NCBI GenBank assembly: GCA_964454865.1
Contig: CAYVTQ010000001.1
Span: 3,554-67,553, forward strand
Length of the DNA stretch: 64,000 nt
Direction of reading: 5' to 3'
Source of the DNA: an uncultured Methanosarcinales archaeon
Lineage (GTDB): Archaea > Nanobdellota > Nanobdellia > Woesearchaeales > GW2011-AR4
In this document: positions 3,445-63,891 of the stretch, piece after piece
Layout: each line of letters begins with the position of its first letter
How positions within the stretch are numbered: the first letter of the stretch is position 1
The notes under the pieces: generated by a model
The model's database searches: none
Told to the model about the DNA's origin: nothing
What the model saw: only the letters and a program-made list of their open reading frames with translations
Translations under genes and position numbers: made by a program

Positions 3445-3951
3445 TCAGTCTTTCTGCTTAAAAGACATTATTGATGACAGCTTGTGCTCAACCACTTTCC
3501 CGCTGTCCGCCTGAATCTTCATATTGAGGGTATTGAAGGCGGCAGTCACAAAGGTTATGTTCCAGATTGTCCCTATATCTTCCAGATTCTGGAGTATTGC
3601 AATGATCTTGACCGGCTGGTCATGGGGATATTTCTTATGCTGAAAATTCTTTGCGCTTTCAACAATAGAGCCTATCTTAAGCTTGATTTTTCCTGTGTCT
3701 ATGGGCAGGACATCCATTGACTCTTTCTTGAATATCTCCTCTTCAGGCTTCATCTCAACAGAATCGTCTCCAACAATGAAAGTGGTTATCTTATCAATAG
3801 CCTTGTCATAGTGCCCTATCTGCCAGTTATTTTCTCCTGAATCCATCAGCATCCTGAAAGCATAAGAGAAATAGCTTTTTGGCTTTGATTTCTTCCATGA
3901 GCTGAATTTTTTATCAGCTTCAAGCTTCTTCAGCGCCTGCTCCAGTTCCAT
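3445..3951 (-). CDS. Hypothetical protein (start placed at internal MELEQ Met)
   Basis: ORF; TATA-like TTTATATAT 23-31 nt upstream of this ATG; no domain recognised. Confidence 0.4.
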   Translation of the reverse strand: MELEQALKKLEADKKFSSWKKSKPKSYFSYAFRMLMDSGENNWQIGHYDKAIDKITTFIVGDDSVEMKPEEEIFKKESMDVLPIDTGKIKLKIGSIVESAKNFQHKKYPHDQPVKIIAILQNLEDIGTIWNITFVTAAFNTLNMKIQADSGKVVEHKLSSIMSFKQKD

Positions 3952-53503: not shown

Positions 53504-53923
53504 ATGCATAAAGACTATTTTCAGGGAATACTGCAGCTCAGGAATGTTGATAATGAGGTCATTGACTTTGTCAGCAGGCAGGCTGCAAAAAGGCAGGATG
53601 TTTTTATTGCAAAGATTGAGAAAGTAAGAAACGGCATCGATATATATTTTTCCTCTCAGCAGTACCTGAAGGCTTTGGGCAGGAAGCTGCAGGAGCATTT
53701 CAGAGGGGAGCTTGTCATAAGCTCCAAGCTTTTCACAAAGAGCAGGACAGGGGAGGATCTGTACAGGGTGAACGTGCTTTTCAGGCAGGCAAAATTTAGG
53801 AAAGGTGATATAATAACCTACAGGGGCAGCAAGCTCAAAATCATCAGAATGGGAAACAAAGTTGCATGCAGATATGTTGATACAGGCAAAAGCATCACGC
53901 TCAGCTATGACTCATTAAGATAG
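53504..53923 (+). CDS. Hypothetical conserved protein (139 aa, basic)
   Basis: Intact ORF; no secure domain assignment. Confidence 0.4.
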   Translation: MHKDYFQGILQLRNVDNEVIDFVSRQAAKRQDVFIAKIEKVRNGIDIYFSSQQYLKALGRKLQEHFRGELVISSKLFTKSRTGEDLYRVNVLFRQAKFRKGDIITYRGSKLKIIRMGNKVACRYVDTGKSITLSYDSLR

Positions 53924-55073
53924 ACTCTTTTTCTTTTTTGTAGTCTATTATTATTTTTCTGAAAACTGACTTTTTGTCAATCTCCCTGTCCAGAAATTCC
54001 TTTCTCACGACAGCAAATGAGCCCAAGTCGTATATTGGCAGCTTATCCGCGCTTATTAAGGTAAAATGAAGCTCATCTTCTGCCTTTCTGCTCAGGGGCT
54101 TTTGGTATACTATAACATTTATCTTTCCTTTTATCTCTTCTATAGTTCTCCTGCTTGCGATGTTTGCATCTTCAACAAGCAGGATATCCTCTTTACCTAT
54201 CTTCAGAGTCATTTTCTTGTTCTCAAGCTCAAGATAGCCCAGATTCCTGATCTTTTTTAATATATAATAGCTCTTGGAGTCCAGAACAATGCTGCTCAAA
54301 TTCATTATATCCTGCTTTAAAGAGGATATCCTGCTGTCTTTTTCCATCAATAGGCTTGCATATGACCTTATCCTTTCTTCTTTGAACTTAAGAAGGGAGC
54401 TGATTTTTTTGCCATAATCAATGCTCCTTCTTTCTATTATTGTTTTGGATTTTTCATTTTTTAGCCTTAGGATGTACTTCCTCAGAAAATATACTTCCTT
54501 CTCATAATTTCTCATCTTATTCAGAACTCTTTCAATATTAATCTGAGGCTGTTCAGGGCTTTCTGTTTTCGCCGTGCCAATCTCTTCTTTCGGCGCCAAA
54601 TAATCAACAGCGTGCTTTATGCTCATCCCCTTGCTTATGACAAGCTCCTTTACAGATTCCCTATCCCCAAAATCAATCTTGTCTATCTTTCTGATCAAAT
54701 GCCTTACCTCATTGAAAGCAAAAAATGCAGAAGCCAGTGCGTCATTCTCATGGCAGTTTTTTACGCTAAACATTTTTGACATTTCCCTTTTTTCCGCTAT
54801 TGAAAGGTCTTCTTTGGGATTGATGGTTTTTGCGCCTAATTTTGCCGCGAACCTATGCACCAAATCAGGAACTTTTCCTTTGTCAGTGCCGGCAATAACA
54901 ACCCTTCCAAATTTCGCAACTTCACTTATAAGCCACGACAGGCCAAGATTTTTCGAAGAATCAACCGCAACCAAATTCCCGCTTATATCAAGAATCGCAT
55001 AGCCTGTTGTCGTGCCTGGGTCTATGCCGACAATGAGGAGTTTTCTTTGCTGCATTTGCAACAAAACAATCAT
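53901..55073 (-). CDS. DUF460-family protein (RNase H-like fold)
   Basis: LLIVGIDPGTTTGYAILD N-terminal signature; coiled-coil C-terminus. Confidence 0.6.
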   Translation of the reverse strand: MIVLLQMQQRKLLIVGIDPGTTTGYAILDISGNLVAVDSSKNLGLSWLISEVAKFGRVVIAGTDKGKVPDLVHRFAAKLGAKTINPKEDLSIAEKREMSKMFSVKNCHENDALASAFFAFNEVRHLIRKIDKIDFGDRESVKELVISKGMSIKHAVDYLAPKEEIGTAKTESPEQPQINIERVLNKMRNYEKEVYFLRKYILRLKNEKSKTIIERRSIDYGKKISSLLKFKEERIRSYASLLMEKDSRISSLKQDIMNLSSIVLDSKSYYILKKIRNLGYLELENKKMTLKIGKEDILLVEDANIASRRTIEEIKGKINVIVYQKPLSRKAEDELHFTLISADKLPIYDLGSFAVVRKEFLDREIDKKSVFRKIIIDYKKEKESILMSHS

Positions 55074-55281: not shown

Positions 55282-56162
<881 letters not shown>

Positions 56163-56447: not shown

Positions 56448-57185
56448 TTAAACCCTCCTGAAAAAGCTCAAAAAGCCGGAATGCCCCAGCATCCTCGACT
56501 TCGGCCTCACTTTTCTCTGCTCCACTTCCCACTCCCTTTCTATCATCTCCAATGTTTTGGCATGGATGAAATCATTCCTTTTGCAGGCGGCATTCGCCAT
56601 ATCCGAAACCTGGACTATAGTGGGGCTGTAGGAAACAAGAAAACCCCCTACTTTTAATGCTTTTGAGCATGAATCCAGAGCTTTCCAAGGCTCCGGCACG
56701 TCCAGAACAATGGTGTCAGCATCTTTCTCATCAATCTCTTTGTAAATATCCTTATTTTTAACCCTCAGATTCTTCAATCCGAGGAATTCAGCATTCTTTT
56801 TTACAATCTCTATGAAATCCTCCCTGATGTCGTACGTCACAACTTCTTTTGCCATATTCGCGAGAAAGCATGCCAATGCGCCGCTGCCGGCCCCTGCATC
56901 CACAATTTTACTTTTCTTGTTAATGCCTGTCTCTGCTAGGATTGCCCCTACGTCCTTCAGGGGGATTATCTGCGCATCCCTCTTTATTTTCTGGTAAACG
57001 TCTATGAAAAACGGGGAAAAAATCATAAATTCAGTATTTGTATTTGACATCAGCTTTGAGCCGTCTTTTTTAGCCAAGTCTGATTTCTTGATATAGCCGA
57101 ATTCCGTATGCATATCTCCACTAGTGTCTTTTACAAAGAATTTCCTGCCTTCTTTTGTGAGCAAAACTCTCTTTATTCTTAGCAT
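56448..57185 (-). CDS. trmI: tRNA (adenine-N1)-methyltransferase TrmI (GCD14 family)
   Basis: IVDAGAGSGAL motif I and DLPEPW-type motif (LDVPEPW). Confidence 0.75.
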   Translation of the reverse strand: MLRIKRVLLTKEGRKFFVKDTSGDMHTEFGYIKKSDLAKKDGSKLMSNTNTEFMIFSPFFIDVYQKIKRDAQIIPLKDVGAILAETGINKKSKIVDAGAGSGALACFLANMAKEVVTYDIREDFIEIVKKNAEFLGLKNLRVKNKDIYKEIDEKDADTIVLDVPEPWKALDSCSKALKVGGFLVSYSPTIVQVSDMANAACKRNDFIHAKTLEMIEREWEVEQRKVRPKSRMLGHSGFLSFFRRV

Positions 57186-57780: not shown

Positions 57781-60132
57781 CTAACCAAACATACCAAACA
57801 GCCCCCTGGCCTTCTTTTCCTTTGATTGGATCATGCTGTCAAGATCTTCCTGCTGCTTCTTCAGGCTTTCAACCTGCTCTTTAAGAACTGCTTTCGCCAC
57901 GTCACTGGGCACTTCATCGATGAGATTTTCCAGCGTCTCAATAGAACTATTCAGTTTTGTCTTGCTTTCTTCCAATTGCCTGATTTCTTCCTGCTCTGCC
58001 TTTTTTGCCAGACCGAAGAAAAGTTTGAACTTGTAGCCAAACCCTTTTTCTTCGTCTTTCTTCTCTATTTCCTCCAATTTGTCAGAAACGTCAAGGACAT
58101 CACTTGCTTTATCCTCAATTATGTACAAGTACTCCTTAGGCACGTCAGAGTCTCTCAATGAAACAAGCTTGCTCGCAGCCTCTCCAGCCTTGCTTCCTGC
58201 CACAATGCCCTCTTTTACTTCTTTCGATTTTTCAGAGCTTGTTGCAGCGCTTATCTTTGCATTCGCAACAAATGGAAGCAGCTTTATATCACCGAAGCTT
58301 TTTGGATTTATATGTCCTTTGTAAACAGTAGTCTCCTGCAGTTTAAGCTCCTCCTTTAGGCCATCCACAAAAAGCCCGAGCTTTTCCATGTCGCTTTCTG
58401 TCGCAGTATTAAGGACTGCAAGGACGATTCCAGCCTTTTCCGCCTTCTGTATGTCTTCCTCATCTTCAATTATATCTGAGAATTTGCATCGTTTCTTCGT
58501 TTCCTCGATGATGAACTTTCTTATGCTCTCTTCTGTAAGAGTCTCCCTGCATCTTGCTGAAATCTCTTTCATGTTCTCGCATCTCTTTGCGCTCTGCTCA
58601 TGGCACCTTTTTCTTTCCTCATCAATCCTTGAGCACCTGTCTTCAGCAGCCTTTATTTGTGATACTGTGTGAATATTGCAGCTTTCTTCAACTCTCTTCA
58701 GATTATCCTCAAAACCTTTTTTGCTTCCCTCAACGCACTGGTTTGCCATATTGCCCCTGTCGCAAGATTTTTGGATATTTTCGCATGTATGCATCTGCTT
58801 GTCCCACGACTTCTGGCAGCGCTTCAGCATTTCTTCATAAACTCCAGCAACATTGCCGGTAATTGGGCTTCCTCCGCTGCCTCCTGATGATGTTGATGAC
58901 GGGATGCATTCATACGCCGTTACGCATTTCCGTTCATCATACTTCGCTGACATGCTGCTGCCTTCATGGCACGATGGCTTGGAGATTTCAGGGCATTCTG
59001 CGGGCTTGCAGTAGTAGTATTCGCATCCTTTGTCATCATTTTTTCTTTCCAAATTTCCGTCGCAGCTTGGCATTTCAGTTTTTGGGCACGTCACTTCAGC
59101 TGATTGGCAATTATAATATGTGCAGCCGTTGGAATCGCTTTTTTTCTGTAAACTTTCTTCGTTCCCGCATTCAGGAACTGGGTAGGCAGGGCATAATTTT
59201 TTCTCTTCAGTTTCATCTTCCCTTTCTTCTTCCTTCCTGACGCCTGCCATGCACTGGCTTATGAACTTCTCCTTGTCGCACATCATATTCTGCTTGGCTT
59301 TCTCGCATTCCTTCATGGAGCTTTCATCACCTAGCCTTTTCTCGCACCATTCCTGGTTTTTCTTCATCTGCTGCTCCATGCTTGCCATGCTCGTCTTTTT
59401 GCAGGACTCAATAATTACATCCTTGTTTACAGGGCATGAATAAGCCTGCATCCGCATTCTTTCAACTTCAGAAGCTTCTTTCATAACCTCCGGCTGGCCC
59501 AATCTGGAGCAGAAATTGCTGGATTCCTCTTCGCAGGTTTTTTCAGCCTGCTCTGCCTTGCTGCAGATACTCTGGAAGTCTCCTGCCTTTTCCTTTAATT
59601 TTGAAACGACAATATCTGCCATCTTTTCAGGCTCGCCGCAGTATTGTTTTATCTCTCTTGGATCAATCTCATCCCCTATATGCTCAAAAATCATTCCAAA
59701 AACCATATGCTCCTTTGAATACCCTTCATATGACGGGCCTCCATAATATCTCTGCCCAATCCCTTTATTCTCATAGGAAAATGACTCTTTTCTTTCCATC
59801 CTTTCGTTAAAATTTCCCATTTTATTCCTGAATTCTTCTTCTGAGAAGTCGTTGCCAAATTTGGCTCGGGCCATATTGATCATTTCTTCTTCATTAAATC
59901 CCTCTTCTCTGAATCTCTTCATCATGGCTTCTTCGCTTGAGCCCCTATTTGGATAAACAACCGCGCCACCTTCATAATAATACTCAGAGCCTTCTCCGGA
60001 TTTGTCTATTGGTTTGCCCTCGTAGTAGCTTGGATTAGAATATTGTTCGGAAGAGTATTGGGCGAATGCAATGTTGCCAAGGATTACTACAAAAATTCCT
60101 GCCAAAGAAAATAATTTTTTGTTTTTCACCAT
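57781..60132 (-). CDS. Large secreted acidic Cys-rich repeat protein with C-terminal coiled coil
   Basis: Sec signal peptide (KKLFSLAGIFVVILGNIAFA), three CxYYxC...EC-P units, EK-rich coiled-coil tail, 783 aa. Confidence 0.6.
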   Translation of the reverse strand: MVKNKKLFSLAGIFVVILGNIAFAQYSSEQYSNPSYYEGKPIDKSGEGSEYYYEGGAVVYPNRGSSEEAMMKRFREEGFNEEEMINMARAKFGNDFSEEEFRNKMGNFNERMERKESFSYENKGIGQRYYGGPSYEGYSKEHMVFGMIFEHIGDEIDPREIKQYCGEPEKMADIVVSKLKEKAGDFQSICSKAEQAEKTCEEESSNFCSRLGQPEVMKEASEVERMRMQAYSCPVNKDVIIESCKKTSMASMEQQMKKNQEWCEKRLGDESSMKECEKAKQNMMCDKEKFISQCMAGVRKEEEREDETEEKKLCPAYPVPECGNEESLQKKSDSNGCTYYNCQSAEVTCPKTEMPSCDGNLERKNDDKGCEYYYCKPAECPEISKPSCHEGSSMSAKYDERKCVTAYECIPSSTSSGGSGGSPITGNVAGVYEEMLKRCQKSWDKQMHTCENIQKSCDRGNMANQCVEGSKKGFEDNLKRVEESCNIHTVSQIKAAEDRCSRIDEERKRCHEQSAKRCENMKEISARCRETLTEESIRKFIIEETKKRCKFSDIIEDEEDIQKAEKAGIVLAVLNTATESDMEKLGLFVDGLKEELKLQETTVYKGHINPKSFGDIKLLPFVANAKISAATSSEKSKEVKEGIVAGSKAGEAASKLVSLRDSDVPKEYLYIIEDKASDVLDVSDKLEEIEKKDEEKGFGYKFKLFFGLAKKAEQEEIRQLEESKTKLNSSIETLENLIDEVPSDVAKAVLKEQVESLKKQQEDLDSMIQSKEKKARGLFGMFG

Positions 60133-60237
60133 CCTTCTGGGATTCTAGGCAGGTATTTATTTAAATTTAACTATTGTCAAATTTAAGTTTCTATAATTCT
60201 GGTAATTATGGTAAATTTAATCTGCAGAAAAAAATAA

Positions 60238-60367
60238 CGGGCCAGGGAAGATTCGAACTCCCGACCTATAGCTTAGAAGGCTTTAGCGGTAATCTATACT
60301 ATCGCTCTCTTTGACCAAGTCAAAGCCCTCAAAGAGCTTTGAGGTATCCAAGCTGAGCTACTGGCCC
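60238..60367 (-). tRNA. tRNA, probably Arg (anticodon UCU), carrying two non-canonical introns (D-loop and 31/32)
   Basis: Acceptor stem GGGCCAG/CTGGCCC, T-arm GGGAG-TTCGAAT-CTTCC, D-stem GCTC...GAGC interrupted by a 38-nt two-hairpin insert, anticodon stem ATAGT/GCTAT with loop CTTCTAA after an 18-nt insert; no encoded CCA. Confidence 0.6.
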
Positions 60368-60419
60368 AATAGGGATTAGAGCTACTTTCTTTTATTTATA
60401 AATATTTGTTGATAACTCT

Positions 60420-60587
60420 TTACATCATCATCAAATCATTGTAGTTAGAAGTCCACATCGTGCAGTGTTTCTTGCCTTCCCAGTAATAATAGCACTGCCT
60501 GCCGAATTTCTCCCATCTTACGCAGCCCTGGCAGCATAAAGGCACATTGCTTTTCTCAGCTTTATGCTCTGTCGCTTGCTCTTCCAT
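60420..60587 (-). CDS. Possible small Cys-rich protein (55 aa)
   Basis: MEEQATEHKAEKSNVPLCCQGCVRWEKFGRQCYYYWEGKKHCTMW...; below the size cutoff of the ORF track; between tRNA and top6A. Confidence 0.25.
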   Translation of the reverse strand: MEEQATEHKAEKSNVPLCCQGCVRWEKFGRQCYYYWEGKKHCTMWTSNYNDLMMM

Positions 60588-60596
60588 TTTGTCCTG

Positions 60597-61712
60597 CTAA
60601 TCCAAAAAGTCCTGCTTCTTGATTTTCTCAGGCAGGTACTTCTCCGATATAAATGTTATTCCCTTGGATGACAATGCCTGTATTTCAAGCTTTGCGCCAA
60701 AATCCTTCATCATCTTGAATTGCCTTTGCCACCCCTTGTTCTTCTCAAACCACTCGTACTCCGCAAGCTGCTTGAGCCTTGTCAGGTCGACATCCTTGAA
60801 CTTGATAAAATGTTTTTTCAGGTCATAGTTGTTTGCGTCATCCGCAGTTATGCCCAGGAACCTGGCATTCTGCAAGGTCATTGTGCCGGACATATGCGCC
60901 AGATTGATCGAGCCGAACTTCAGGACAGAATAGATATAGAACCCCCACGGATCAAAGTCTGCCAGAACATAGATCGGCAGATTGTGCTCGTCATTCAGCC
61001 TCTGCAACAGCCTTCTTATCCCTCTTGTCGTCTGCCCCTGCGATGTCACAATAAGGCAGTTCTGCTTCTCCCAGAATTTGTCCTCGTGCAGCCTCTCCCA
61101 GACAGCCTGCTTCTCCATATAGATGACATATTTTGCCTTTACGCTTTTAAACTCAATTTCCTCTACATTGGAGGGGATGCTCCACCCGCCGCTTCCCAAT
61201 TTTGCCCAGTTTATGCTGTCTCCGGAGTCTTCAATGACTACATTGCCCGCAACAGAGCCCATCTTATTTGCATTAATGTGTATCTGCTCTCTTGACAGGT
61301 CAGTTATCAGCTCTAGATCTTCAATTGCCTTGTCGCTCTCCACCTGATCATCAACTATGTTTATGTTTGAGCCGTGAATGGTCCTTTTTGCCATGTAGAA
61401 AACATCTCTTAAGCTTGCGTGCTTGTCTGCATCGAGAAGAGTCTTGCTCACCTTGGCTATCTCCAATGTCTGGAGGAACTTTTTAGCGTGCCCTACATTA
61501 AAGAATGACCTCTGCTGCTGCTTATTTCCCAAGCTTAAAGTTTTGCTCTTTGTGTCAAAAACGACGTTTGAAAGGCTTCTAAGGCTGAACTCTATTGTAG
61601 GGTTTTTGCCCTTGCTTATCTGCTGGACAAGCCCCTTTCCGAATTCCTCGAGCTGCTTGTCAGCCTTTTGAGTTTTCTTCTTCATTTTCGCTTCCTTCTT
61701 CCTTGCTGTCAA
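60597..61712 (-). CDS. top6A: DNA topoisomerase VI subunit A (Spo11 family)
   Basis: RDVFY catalytic Tyr motif, Toprim VLADFDPWG. Confidence 0.9.
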
Positions 61713-63306
61713 ATTTCATCCTGTAAAGGTCGTCATCTCCGGTATCCGACTCTATCTCGCTCTTTATTTCAGGTTTTACAAGCATCTTTTTAAGTCCTTC
61801 CAAAACCTTTTCCTTGTCTGCCCCTGCCAAAACAGCCAGCGAATCAGCAACTTCCGGAATATACTTTTCAAACATATTGGCCCTTTCCATCTGGCTGTGG
61901 ATTCTGGTTTTCTTCCTCACATAAGCCCCAAGATGCCTGCCGCACTCCTGCAGCGCAAGCTTGACTTCCTTCATTATCTCTGCATAATGCGCAATCGCTT
62001 CCTTGCTTTCGCTTGTGAAAGGGACCCATACAGAAGACATATGGATGAGGATTACAGCAGGCCCTACAGGAACAGAGTCTCCAGACTGCTGCAGGCCGTA
62101 AGGCTTCCAGTTATTCTCCATGAGGGATTTGGTCATTGAGCAGGCGCCTTCCTGATACAGCAAAGGCACCCTGTTTGCAAATCTCAGGATCACTGCCTTT
62201 TCATCTTTGGGTATTTCGCCGCCATAGGCAACGCCGGCTTCTATAACAAATGGATTGCCCCTGTAAACTGCAGGGGGCCTTGACTTTGCGCAATAAAACT
62301 CAGCCTTTATTTCCTTCCTTAACCCTTTCTCGAGCAATTCTTCCCCTATCGGGCTTAAGCAGTCTGTCGGCGGAGCTATAAGCTTTGTCTTTTGTATTCC
62401 CTGTATGAGCTTTTCCGCCAAATCCCTTGTTATCTGGCTTGGCTTTGTATCGGGCTTTACCCCAGCATTAATGCAGACTTCCTTTGCCGTCTCATTCCCC
62501 ACTCTTGAGAATTCCGAAGTCAGGAAGCTTTGGAGCGTCCTGGATGAAGTTGCAGCAAGCATATTGATGAGCATTCCCAATTCCACCCCGTAAGGATGCG
62601 GCTTTATCGGCTTCGGCTTCCTTGGCATCTGGTCGACTGCTCTTGCATAGATAGTCTGCTCTGCCTTCGGGTTTGTATAGACAATGGTGACATGGGGGTT
62701 TATGACTGCCGTCTGCTTTAGGTACTCATCAACGGACTGCCTGCCCTTCAGGTACTCAGCTTCCAAATCCAGCTCTACTTTTGTGCCATGATCTTTTTTC
62801 CACTCAACAGTCTCCTCCTTGGTGATCTTCGGCTGGTTTTTCTGCGTGTCGATATTAAGCTCGTAATAATTTGCCGGATGCTTCGGAGAAATCTTTGATG
62901 TTATCCTTGCAGGTGTTCCTACAGTAAGCTGGGAGTAAAGGACTGCAGCGCTGATGCCTATCCCCTGCTGCCCGCGCGACTGCTTCATGGTGTGGAACTT
63001 GCTTCCATAAAGAAGCTTTGCAAAGATGTTGGGGATTTGGTTTTTTACTATGCCGGGGCCGTTGTCCTCGATTACAACACGGTACTTAAACTCGCTGAGC
63101 TGTATGATCTCCACCTGTATTTCAGGCAGCATATCCCCTTCCTCGCAGGCATCCAGTGAGTTGTCAACTGCCTCCTTTATAGCCATGAGCAGTGCCTTTC
63201 TTTTGCTGTCGAAACCCAAAAGGTGCCTGTTCTTTGTAAAGAACTCTGCAACAGAAATCTCTTTCTGCCTTCTTGCCAATTCATGCGCTATTGTTTCTTC
63301 CGGCAT
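61660..63306 (-). CDS. top6B: DNA topoisomerase VI subunit B (GHKL ATPase)
   Basis: Bergerat fold EAVDNSLDA and DNGPGI motifs, transducer domain; overlaps top6A start. Confidence 0.9.
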
Positions 63307-63345: not shown

Positions 63346-63891
63346 TTAGATATCTATGAGCTTCCTTCTTTTCAGCTCCCTTCTCCTCTTTTCCAGCCAT
63401 TTGTATACGCTCGAGTGGGTGGAGCCCCTCAACAGCGCTTCAATGGCATGCCTTGCAGCAGCCACGTTTTCCGGCTGCCCGAGCATGCTTATTGTTTTTC
63501 CAAAAACAGAAATATACGCTTCAGTAAGCTCCTCAATAAGCTTCCTGGATTTGCCTTCCTTGCCTATTACCCTTCCCTTCAGCCTTAGCATAACATCCTT
63601 TGATTTGCCGGAATAATCCTGCATGTATACCATCTCAAAAACATAATCCTGCTTCAAAAGCAGCTGCGCAATCTCAGGGTTGAATCCTCTTCCGATGGCT
63701 TTTATTATCTCTCTTGCAGTATATAGCCCAAGCGCGTCTTTTCCAGATAGAAAGACATCTCCCTCCTTTGAATCAATTTCCAGCTTAGTGCCTGTAGCAG
63801 CCTCTAGCTCCCTCTTAATCACCCCCTCCTTGCCGATTAATACAGCAACCCTTGACTTGGGAATTCTAAGTTCGTATGAGAAGACTTCCAT
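63346..63891 (-). CDS. KH-domain RNA-binding protein, aDim2/PNO1-like
   Basis: Two KH modules with GKEG / GKEGKS GxxG loops; 181 aa. Confidence 0.7.
   Translation of the reverse strand: MEVFSYELRIPKSRVAVLIGKEGVIKRELEAATGTKLEIDSKEGDVFLSGKDALGLYTAREIIKAIGRGFNPEIAQLLLKQDYVFEMVYMQDYSGKSKDVMLRLKGRVIGKEGKSRKLIEELTEAYISVFGKTISMLGQPENVAAARHAIEALLRGSTHSSVYKWLEKRRRELKRRKLIDI

Follow-up and report, generated by a model that had tools for sequence, protein, structure and literature searches.

A tRNA-Arg(UCU) gene with two predicted introns outside position 37/38 in a woesearchaeal genome fragment

Introduction

As described in the part of PMC4090602 used here, the archaeal bulge-helix-bulge (BHB) motif consists of a 4-bp helix between two 3-nt bulges that bear the splice sites; in the canonical pre-tRNA the first two anticodon bases lie within this central helix, and a relaxed form, HBh', is a recognised variant. 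The same part of that article, summarising Marck & Grosjean 2003 and Sugahara 2007/2008, attributes multi-intron tRNA genes and non-canonical BHB/HBh' introns to the Crenarchaeota, including the Thermoproteales, among them a Pyrobaculum tRNA-Pro(UGG) gene with introns at 25/26, 37/38 and 56/57. For the DPANN archaea, the portions of Kaneta et al. 2018 (NAR 46:1958, Fig. 7; PMC5829648) considered here present predicted tRNA genes, including those of Ca. Woesearchaeota archaeon RBG_13_36_6, and report (i) marked tRNA-gene disruption, including multiple introns, with one Woesearchaeota genome among the examples; (ii) incomplete tRNA sets that point to undetected disrupted genes; (iii) an alpha4 splicing endonuclease (EndA) with an L3 loop; and (iv) that alpha4 or alpha'2 enzymes of strict specificity would not be expected to cleave relaxed substrates. 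The tRNAs of ARMAN-2 are cleaved by an epsilon2 EndA (Fujishima 2011, PMC3239211). Here we describe a tRNA gene on the minus strand of a 64-kb stretch of contig CAYVTQ010000001.1 (the window), which is very probably a functional tRNA-Arg(UCU) gene whose transcript would undergo EndA-type splicing of two relaxed BHB introns, one in the D-loop (intron 1, between positions 20a and 21) and one in the anticodon stem (intron 2, between positions 28 and 29).

The gene resembles those of the Crenarchaeota and Thermoproteales in having more than one short intron outside 37/38 (known sites there include 20/21 in the D-loop, 29/30 and 30/31 in the anticodon stem, and 53/54 and 59/60 in the T-arm), in the 4-bp helix with 3-nt bulges, often of the HBh' type, and in intron sequences that are free apart from the pairing. 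It differs in its host, which is a woesearchaeote of the DPANN rather than a member of the TACK group. Position 28/29 is absent from the quoted part of the position list in PMC4090602, a list that includes 20/21, 29/30 and 30/31 and ends in 'etc.', while the HBh' type itself has been described for both Crenarchaeota and ARMAN. Compared with canonical 37/38 introns that have the strict hBHBh' form (Haloferax tRNA-Trp, Methanocaldococcus tRNAs), the core geometry is the same, and the window introns follow the rule seen in the 37/38 introns of orthologous genes, which are cleaved after the second bulge nucleotide; however, canonical introns use the anticodon stem as the outer helix h, whereas intron 2 lacks h and intron 1 has it behind a 3x3 internal loop. 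A close setting is described by Kaneta et al. 2018, whose genomes belong to the same superphylum, frequently contain non-canonical and multiple introns, and yield incomplete tRNA sets under default prediction. To the extent that it was considered here, that study applied tRNAscan-SE to one Woesearchaeota genome, whereas we compare about 70 orthologues; we found no description of the window gene, its intron positions or its motif in those portions of PMC5829648, and a full-text literature search yielded no paper treating Woesearchaeota tRNA introns in more detail.

Results

Exon structure and mature tRNA

A first-pass annotation of the window had placed here, without naming a strand, a 130-nt tRNA gene exceeding a 75-nt tRNA by 55 nt, and such a gene is indeed present (Table 1). 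Our analyses cover the scanned 64-kb window together with fetched loci (denoted by L and a number), which include the 80 best genome loci around top6A (L001-L080) and 28 metagenome loci obtained with the pattern AGAGCGAY-N(6-36)-CGCTARAGCCTTCTAAGC, which finds the 28/29 intron only. Exon boundaries were derived for 43 genes, the window gene and 42 orthologues, by spliced alignment and cloverleaf optimisation, a procedure independent of the BHB rule; the junctions of L004, L023 and L033 were curated manually and the others were placed by structure-aware refinement.

Read along the minus strand, with introns in parentheses, the gene is GGGCCAG UA GCUC AGCUUGGAU (ACCUCAAAGCUCUUUGAGGGCUUUGACUUGGUCAAAG) A GAGC G AU (AGUAUAGAUUACCGCUAA) AGC CUUCUAA GCUAU AGGUC GGGAG UUCGAAU CUUCC CUGGCCC G, that is, three exons of 22, 8 and 45 nt. 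The acceptor stem GGGCCAG/CTGGCCC, the D-stem GCTC/GAGC, the anticodon loop CTTCTAA, the T-arm GGGAG-TTCGAAT-CTTCC (with one G.U pair) and the discriminator G (60238) are as first annotated, and CCA is not encoded. Given the spliced 75-nt form, ARAGORN reports tRNA-Arg(tct) with a complete cloverleaf, in agreement with the anticodon UCU (Arg) proposed earlier. This product has 21 of 21 stem pairs as well as U8, A14, G18G19, A21, U33 and the TTCGAAT T-loop. Its anticodon loop, C32 U33 U34 C35 U36 A37 A38, has 7 nt with U33 and a purine at 37, and its 5-nt variable loop, AGGUC, is that of a type I tRNA, as expected of an archaeal tRNA-Arg(UCU). The mature anticodon stem is ATAGC/GCTAT, with C31 (mature reading ...GAUAGCCUUCUAA...), and the predicted mature exon junctions read GGAU-AGAGCGAU-AGCC.

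Both insert positions shift slightly upon comparison with orthologues. Because the orthologue D-loop is AGCTTGGATA (RNA form AGCUUGGAUA), the first insert, which had rightly been seen to interrupt the D-loop, is 37 nt long (ACCTC...CAAAG, 60345..60309) and not 38. Position 31 is C in all 42 genome-locus orthologues and in all 28 metagenome genes; therefore the second insert, 18 nt in length as annotated, is located within the anticodon stem, in its 5' strand (AT↓AGTATAGATTACCGCTAA↓AGC, arrows marking splice sites), and not at the boundary between stem and loop. The stem ATAGT, with U31, that had been derived from a 31/32 junction was thus placed 3 nt too far 3'.

Based on its anticodon, the tRNA is predicted to read AGA and possibly AGG. 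Since these two account for 122 of the 130 Arg codons (94%) in eight neighbouring genes, the host would be expected to need it.

Table 1. Features of the tRNA-Arg(UCU) locus and its surroundings (window coordinates)
Feature	Position	Strand	Basis or remarks
tRNA-Arg(UCU) gene, complete, 130-nt precursor, 75 nt spliced	60238..60367	-	Sequence; ARAGORN on spliced form; 42 orthologue loci
Exon 1, GGGCCAGTAGCTCAGCTTGGAT, tRNA positions 1-20a (5' acceptor strand, U8 A9, 5' D-stem, most of D-loop)	60346..60367	-	Spliced alignment to intron-less orthologues and cloverleaf refinement
Intron 1, 37 nt, ACCTCAAAGCTCTTTGAGGGCTTTGACTTGGTCAAAG, D-loop, between 20a and 21	60309..60345	-	H 4/4, h' 2 bp
Exon 2, AGAGCGAT, positions 21-28 (A21, 3' D-stem GAGC, G26, A27 U28), 8 nt	60301..60308	-	
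Intron 2, 18 nt, AGTATAGATTACCGCTAA, between 28 and 29, 5' strand of anticodon stem	60283..60300	-	H 4/4, h' 3 bp
Exon 3, positions 29-73 (rest of anticodon arm, variable loop AGGTC, T-arm, 3' acceptor strand, discriminator)	60238..60282	-	
Anticodon TCT (UCU, arginine)	60275..60277	-	ARAGORN on spliced form
Archaeal TATA box TTTATAAA, 28-35 nt upstream of mature 5' end	60395..60402	-	
T7 run, 3 nt after discriminator	60228..60234	-	
Small Cys-rich open reading frame (ORF), 55 aa (MEEQ...CCQGCVRWEKFGRQCYYYWEGKKHCTMW...)	60420-60587	-	No Pfam match
Topoisomerase VI subunit A (Top6A)	60597-61712		
Topoisomerase VI subunit B	61660-63306		
Two-KH-domain protein	63346-63891		
783-aa protein, N-terminal hydrophobic segment, Cys- and Glu/Lys-rich stretches	57781-60132	-	No Pfam match at E<=0.001
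GCD14-type (GCD14/TrmI) tRNA m1A58 methyltransferase	56448-57185	-	3 kb from tRNA gene
Lumazine-synthase-fold protein	55680-56162		
CTP-dependent riboflavin kinase	55282-55683		
DUF460 protein	53901-55073		

Splicing motifs of the two introns

For each intron we asked whether two 4-nt segments, one ending 2 nt before the 5' splice site and the other 2 nt before the 3' site, pair to form the central helix H. For intron 1, exonic TTGG (positions 17-19, 60351..60348) pairs with intronic TCAA (60314..60311) at four of four positions, one of them a G.U; AT↓A and AG↓A form the bulges, and CC/GG (2 bp) forms the intron-side helix h', which is followed by a 10-bp hairpin (60342..60333 with 60329..60320). 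For intron 2, AGCG (positions 23-26, 60306..60303) pairs fully with CGCT (60288..60285), with AT↓A and AA↓A as bulges; the loop TAGAT caps its h', GTA/TAC. In both cases the splice sites thus follow the second nucleotide of 3-nt bulges flanking a 4-bp helix, as in the published BHB.

These junctions are well defined. We enumerated all pairs of 5' and 3' sites compatible with a 7-11-nt D-loop or a 13-nt segment from position 26 to 38. For intron 2, the 28/29 junctions are the only pair with a complete central helix. For intron 1, a single alternative (17↓...↓55) also gives four pairs and was rejected as it would delete G18G19; 20a/21 is the only complete solution that retains these bases.

Neither intron has the strict hBHBh' form, and h' is present in both. 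An outer helix h is impossible for intron 2, where G22 lies opposite G30; for intron 1 the D-stem could act as h, but the unpaired A14-C16 face the 3' bulge and create the 3x3 internal loop. Both introns are therefore of the relaxed HBh' type, the outer exon-exon helix being absent in one and separated in the other, and judging by these motifs both substrates would need a broad-specificity endonuclease. This agrees with the original proposal of two introns, neither at 37/38, that call for an endonuclease tolerant of relaxed BHB motifs. Intron 2, whose H has a pair probability of 0.74-0.78 in the ensemble fold, is a textbook mini-intron.

Self-splicing introns of group I or II were also considered and rejected, the inserts being only 37 and 18 nt long compared with a catalytic core of at least 200 nt; no Rfam intron family matched in the window at the gathering threshold or at E<=5.

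Conservation and covariation among orthologues

A tRNA-Arg(UCU) orthologue was found in 42 of the 80 genome loci, often just downstream of top6A. These genes range from 74 to 275 nt in length and their introns from 11 to 184 nt. Four lack introns altogether (L009, L026, L053, L054) and are recognised as tRNA-Arg(tct) by ARAGORN and as tRNA by Rfam, with 67-71 bits against a gathering score of 29 bits. The spliced window product is identical at 73 of 75 positions to spliced L090, at 71 of 75 to spliced L003 and at 67 of 75 to the intron-less L026, and nearly all of the differences are compensatory changes in stems. Together with the complete set of stem pairs after splicing, these matches rule out a chance resemblance to a tRNA.

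We calibrated the BHB rule on the 23 canonical 37/38 introns of the 43-gene set; since most of these show CUUC(32-35)/GAAG, the rule is validated. Across all 61 introns of the 43 genes, the central helix has four of four pairs in 41, three in 17 and two in 3, whereas control junctions shifted by 1-15 nt give four pairs in 1.9% and three in 13% of cases.

At the 28/29 site, the genome and metagenome loci provide 24 distinct introns, every one of which ends in CGCTA(A/G); as RNA, this end, CGCUA(A/G), consists of the sequence complementary to exonic AGCG, followed by the bulge. In every case h' is closed by varied complementary sequences, averaging 3.3 bp as compared with 0.66 in shuffled interiors, and at least nine different opening dinucleotides occur. 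The 20a/21 site is shared by the window gene and L003, L011, L012, L027, L037 and L061, giving seven introns of 15-184 nt in which the 3' strand of H is TCAA in the window and CCAA or CCGA in the six others, and in which h' covaries among four pair types (CC/GG, TA/TA, GA/TC, TG/CA). At both sites, related introns thus conserve structure (H, and h' by covariation) and not sequence. Window intron 1 and the 16-nt L037 intron have matching ends (ACC...GGYCRAAG); the former carries a 26-nt insertion at the place of the latter's 5-nt loop. Both window introns are single-copy within the window and L001-L080, which gives no indication of a repeated mobile element.

Competing folds of intron 1

The two perfect hairpins of which the D-loop insert had been said to consist, CCTCAAAG-CT-CTTTGAGG and CTTTGAC-TTG-GTCAAAG, both exist, and intron 1 folded alone prefers them (-13.6 kcal/mol, z = -2.8 against shuffled sequences). 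However, they sequester the CC of h' and the TCAA of H. The fold compatible with splicing is instead the single 10-bp hairpin TCAAAGCTCT/AGGGCTTTGA (RNA: UCAAAGCUCU/AGGGCUUUGA), which leaves H and h' free to form and which RNAfold selects once the D-stem is present. In these models, then, splicing does not use the two perfect hairpins, which would instead compete with the splicing-competent fold. That the alternation between two hairpins and one long hairpin serves as a conformational gate ordering both splicing events is a lesser possibility.

In the unconstrained minimum free energy (MFE) fold of the precursor, D-loop AGCUUGGA pairs with UCUAAGCU of the anticodon loop and stem over 8 bp (60347-60354 with 60272-60279, minus strand), a long-range helix in competition with both the cloverleaf and the intron 1 BHB. 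As both segments are exonic, this helix is present in all orthologues; it is probably incidental.

Alternative interpretations

Several observations weigh against the proposed splicing of two BHB introns. The BHB-register pair probability of H in intron 1 stays between 0.015 and 0.13 overall, with values of 0.015-0.02 in the precursor, 0.03-0.04 when intron 2 is absent and about 0.1 when the tRNA body is enforced; the enforced BHB fold lies about 4 kcal/mol above the MFE, H contains a G.U pair, and the outer helix stands behind the 3x3 internal loop. For intron 1, comparative data give more support than thermodynamics does, and this is the main residual doubt. For intron 2, H and the D-stem are mutually exclusive, H using the 3' strand of the D-stem. 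The combination of 20a/21 and 28/29 occurs in no other of the 80 genome loci searched, and an exact-pattern metagenome scan for both introns at the window positions gave no match; none of the 28 metagenome loci from the relaxed scan, all with a 28/29 intron, has one at 20a/21. No EndA was found in the window or the fetched loci by tblastn with the enzymes of M. jannaschii, ARMAN-2 and S. tokodaii (E<=1; the query was checked against PDB 1A79), and a second, intact tRNA-Arg(UCU) copy may exist outside the 64-kb window. Finally, transcription, EndA cleavage, splicing order and ligation are steps that we infer from DNA sequence alone.

Three other interpretations of the locus were weighed. The exon structure first annotated, a 38-nt D-loop intron (mature D-loop AGCTTGGA-A) with an 18-nt intron at 31/32 and the stem ATAGU/GCUAU with a U31.G39 wobble, gives the same total length of 75 nt and the same anticodon, and ARAGORN, when intron 1 is removed, likewise places the 18-nt intron at 31/32. 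Yet the 31/32 junction yields two of four central-helix pairs and no h', as opposed to four pairs and a 3-bp h' at 28/29; every one of the 70 related genes shows C31 together with the signature CGCTA(A/G)↓AGCC; and orthologues without a D-loop intron have AGCTTGGATA, which fixes the first intron at 37 nt. We thus regard this structure as very improbable. The lack of a valid BHB motif, named at the outset as grounds for abandoning the two-intron model, does apply to the 31/32 junction, but a valid motif lies 3 nt upstream, with the same intron length and anticodon.

Quite improbable, too, is a decaying pseudogene, a former tRNA-Arg disabled by two insertions (small palindromic elements, for instance) and no longer spliced or used. 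Standard detectors fail to recognise the gene, intron 1 is dominated by two perfect hairpins that compete with the BHB fold, the two-intron combination is unique among the genes seen, and inspection was confined to a 64-kb window of the genome, all of which would fit such decay. However, the gene retains all four stems intact, together with its conserved loop bases, promoter box and T-run; both insertion sites are common to many orthologues and keep exact BHB complementarity, and the inserts, as noted above, are single-copy in the loci searched; moreover, no other tRNA-Arg was detected in the 64-kb window, and AGA and AGG dominate Arg usage. A different tRNA altogether, a tRNA-Ser(UGA) whose anticodon loop would hold one 52-nt intron, is called by ARAGORN at its lowest stringency (-i -ps), and only with thresholds lowered in this way. 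It would have a 1-bp D-stem, hairpin 1 as its anticodon stem and no long variable arm of the kind found in tRNA-Ser, and not one orthologue supports it, while 42 genome-locus orthologues support Arg(UCU). The comparative data refute this call, which we rejected as an artefact with next to no chance of being correct.

Intron-position diversity among orthologues

Introns interrupt 39 of the 43 genes, at about nine positions for one orthologous tRNA. Position 37/38 is the most frequent (23 introns), followed by 19/20 (8), 20a/21 and 59/60 (7 each), 28/29 (6), 42/43 (3), 30/31 and 53/54 (2 each) and 29/30 (1); two single introns placed at 36/37 and 38/39 have ambiguous ends and probably belong to 37/38. 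The number of introns per gene is zero in four genes, one in 18, two in 20 and three in one (L023). Genes with near-identical exons can carry different introns: the window gene has 20a/21 and 28/29, L090 has only 28/29, with an unrelated intron sequence, and L003 has only 20a/21. Further examples of interrupted genes, from the loci L001-L080 and L087-L114, are L023 (5300-5438), L061 (minus strand, 3505-3779 of the reverse complement) and L065 (5191-5399).

In L004 (minus strand, 2689-2803 of the reverse complement) and in L023 (5300-5438), the 42/43 intron has the central helix GAGC/GUUC, the first base of which is the last nucleotide of the adjacent 37/38 intron; without the 37/38 intron, the helix in L004 keeps only three of four pairs. 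This hints at an obligatory splicing order in which the 42/43 intron is removed first, or both are removed together. In a distant Woesearchaeota clade (L038, 2513-2730; L039, from 6354; L047, from 3623), the tRNA-Arg(UCU) introns lie at 37/38 and 59/60, and an intron-less tRNA-Cys(GCA) gene follows after only 2 nt, which suggests a dicistronic transcript.

Detection by standard tools

In the unspliced window, ARAGORN detected no tRNA genes, also when run with intron options on the raw region, and Rfam gave no match at gathering thresholds. A permissive Rfam scan produced a sub-threshold tRNA match of 20.2 bits that covers only the 3' 68 nt of the gene (60305..60238); at E<=5, Rfam gave no tRNA match across the whole window. 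A scan of the 64 kb for T-arm plus acceptor motifs returned only the gene at 60238..60367.

The orthologues behave similarly. Among the intron-containing ones scanned, all but one (L078) were missed by ARAGORN or called 'tRNA-???'; the program recognises only the intron-less orthologues and one with a 12-nt canonical intron. Calls of 'tRNA-???' with 4-base anticodons occur in L022 (5338-5435), L048 (5492-5590), L050 (4765-4858, minus strand) and L078 (6855-6938, minus strand). Those in L022 and L048 are misread intron-containing Arg(UCU) genes; those in L050, where ARAGORN also calls a 94-nt 'tRNA-Pyl(cta)', and in L078 are probably other intron-containing tRNAs that were mis-called.

Host, neighbourhood and expression signals

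The window, with a G+C content of about 42%, comes from an archaeon, as shown by the genes next to the tRNA gene for both topoisomerase VI subunits, a KH protein, CTP-dependent riboflavin kinase and a GCD14-type m1A methyltransferase. Its Top6A has thousands of relatives, and the named ones among the best 120 all belong to Candidatus Woesearchaeota / Nanoarchaeia. The 80 best genome loci are nearly all from Woesearchaeota or Nanoarchaeia metagenome-assembled genomes (MAGs), mostly from groundwater; some ENA bins among them are labelled "uncultured Methanosarcinales". By these sequence relationships the host is identified as a DPANN archaeon of the Woesearchaeota. This is in line with the first annotator's view that such multi-intron genes are a trait of certain archaeal lineages, the DPANN being reported, in the portions of PMC5829648 considered here, to have many disrupted tRNA genes.

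The gene has conserved flanking signals. An A-rich stretch resembling a B recognition element (BRE), CAACAAATA, precedes the TATA box, and a TATA box (consensus AACAACTTTTATAAAYA) preceded by AACAAC lies at the same distance upstream of nearly all orthologues; its action as a promoter is inferred from this placement. T-rich sequence follows most orthologues, and the T7 run of the window gene is a likely archaeal transcription stop.

Immediately downstream of top6A, before the tRNA promoter, comes the Cys-rich ORF, which is conserved (L081, 3601-3766, plus strand). The closest Top6A relatives, at 90% identity (L081 by sequence, L082-L086 by gene tables), keep only this ORF downstream of top6A and have no tRNA there, and so provide no close comparison for the tRNA gene. 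On the other side, the gene for the 783-aa protein begins about 100 nt downstream of the tRNA gene on the same strand; this protein is probably secreted or surface-located.

Discussion

Disrupted multi-intron tRNA genes are already known in DPANN archaea, and the window gene is one more case, well supported. We propose that the gene would be transcribed from its own TATA promoter into a 130-nt precursor with a short leader and trailer, and that each junction would fold into the BHB geometry, with one cleavage site in each of two 3-nt bulges, which lie on opposite sides of a 4-bp helix. EndA would then cut at 20a↓21, at 28↓29 and at the matching 3' sites, and an RtcB-type ligase would join the exons into the 75-nt tRNA. 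In this scheme intron 1 has to refold from two hairpins into the single long one. The 3' strand of the D-stem (A23-G26) is taken up by H of intron 2, and the precursor would therefore not be a cloverleaf at the time when intron 2 is removed.

On the evidence of these motifs, the gene adds an example, with comparative support, suggesting that splicing in DPANN archaea extends to relaxed HBh' introns of the D-loop and the anticodon stem. It thereby bears on the question of how alpha4-type endonucleases with an L3 loop, as described in the portions of Kaneta et al. 2018 considered here, achieve broad specificity. There is also a practical consequence: with genes of this kind overlooked by standard tools, Woesearchaeota MAGs would wrongly seem to lack an essential tRNA, and the undetected gene could bias estimates of completeness or inferences of 'reduced translation'.

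While the single gene will not surprise a specialist, the diversity of intron positions is the most interesting lead. We did not find such polymorphism within one orthologue described for DPANN archaea in the literature. It is possible, although doubtful at present, that tRNA introns turn over unusually fast in Woesearchaeota and that the window gene is one snapshot of this process. If so, and if introns are being actively inserted in DPANN archaea rather than differentially lost, candidate routes would be reverse reactions of EndA and ligase, or intron transposition as proposed for the Thermoproteales, and these genes would offer a natural system for studying the gain of BHB introns. The approximately 70 orthologues, with about nine insertion sites, provide a ready data set for the analysis of intron gain and loss.

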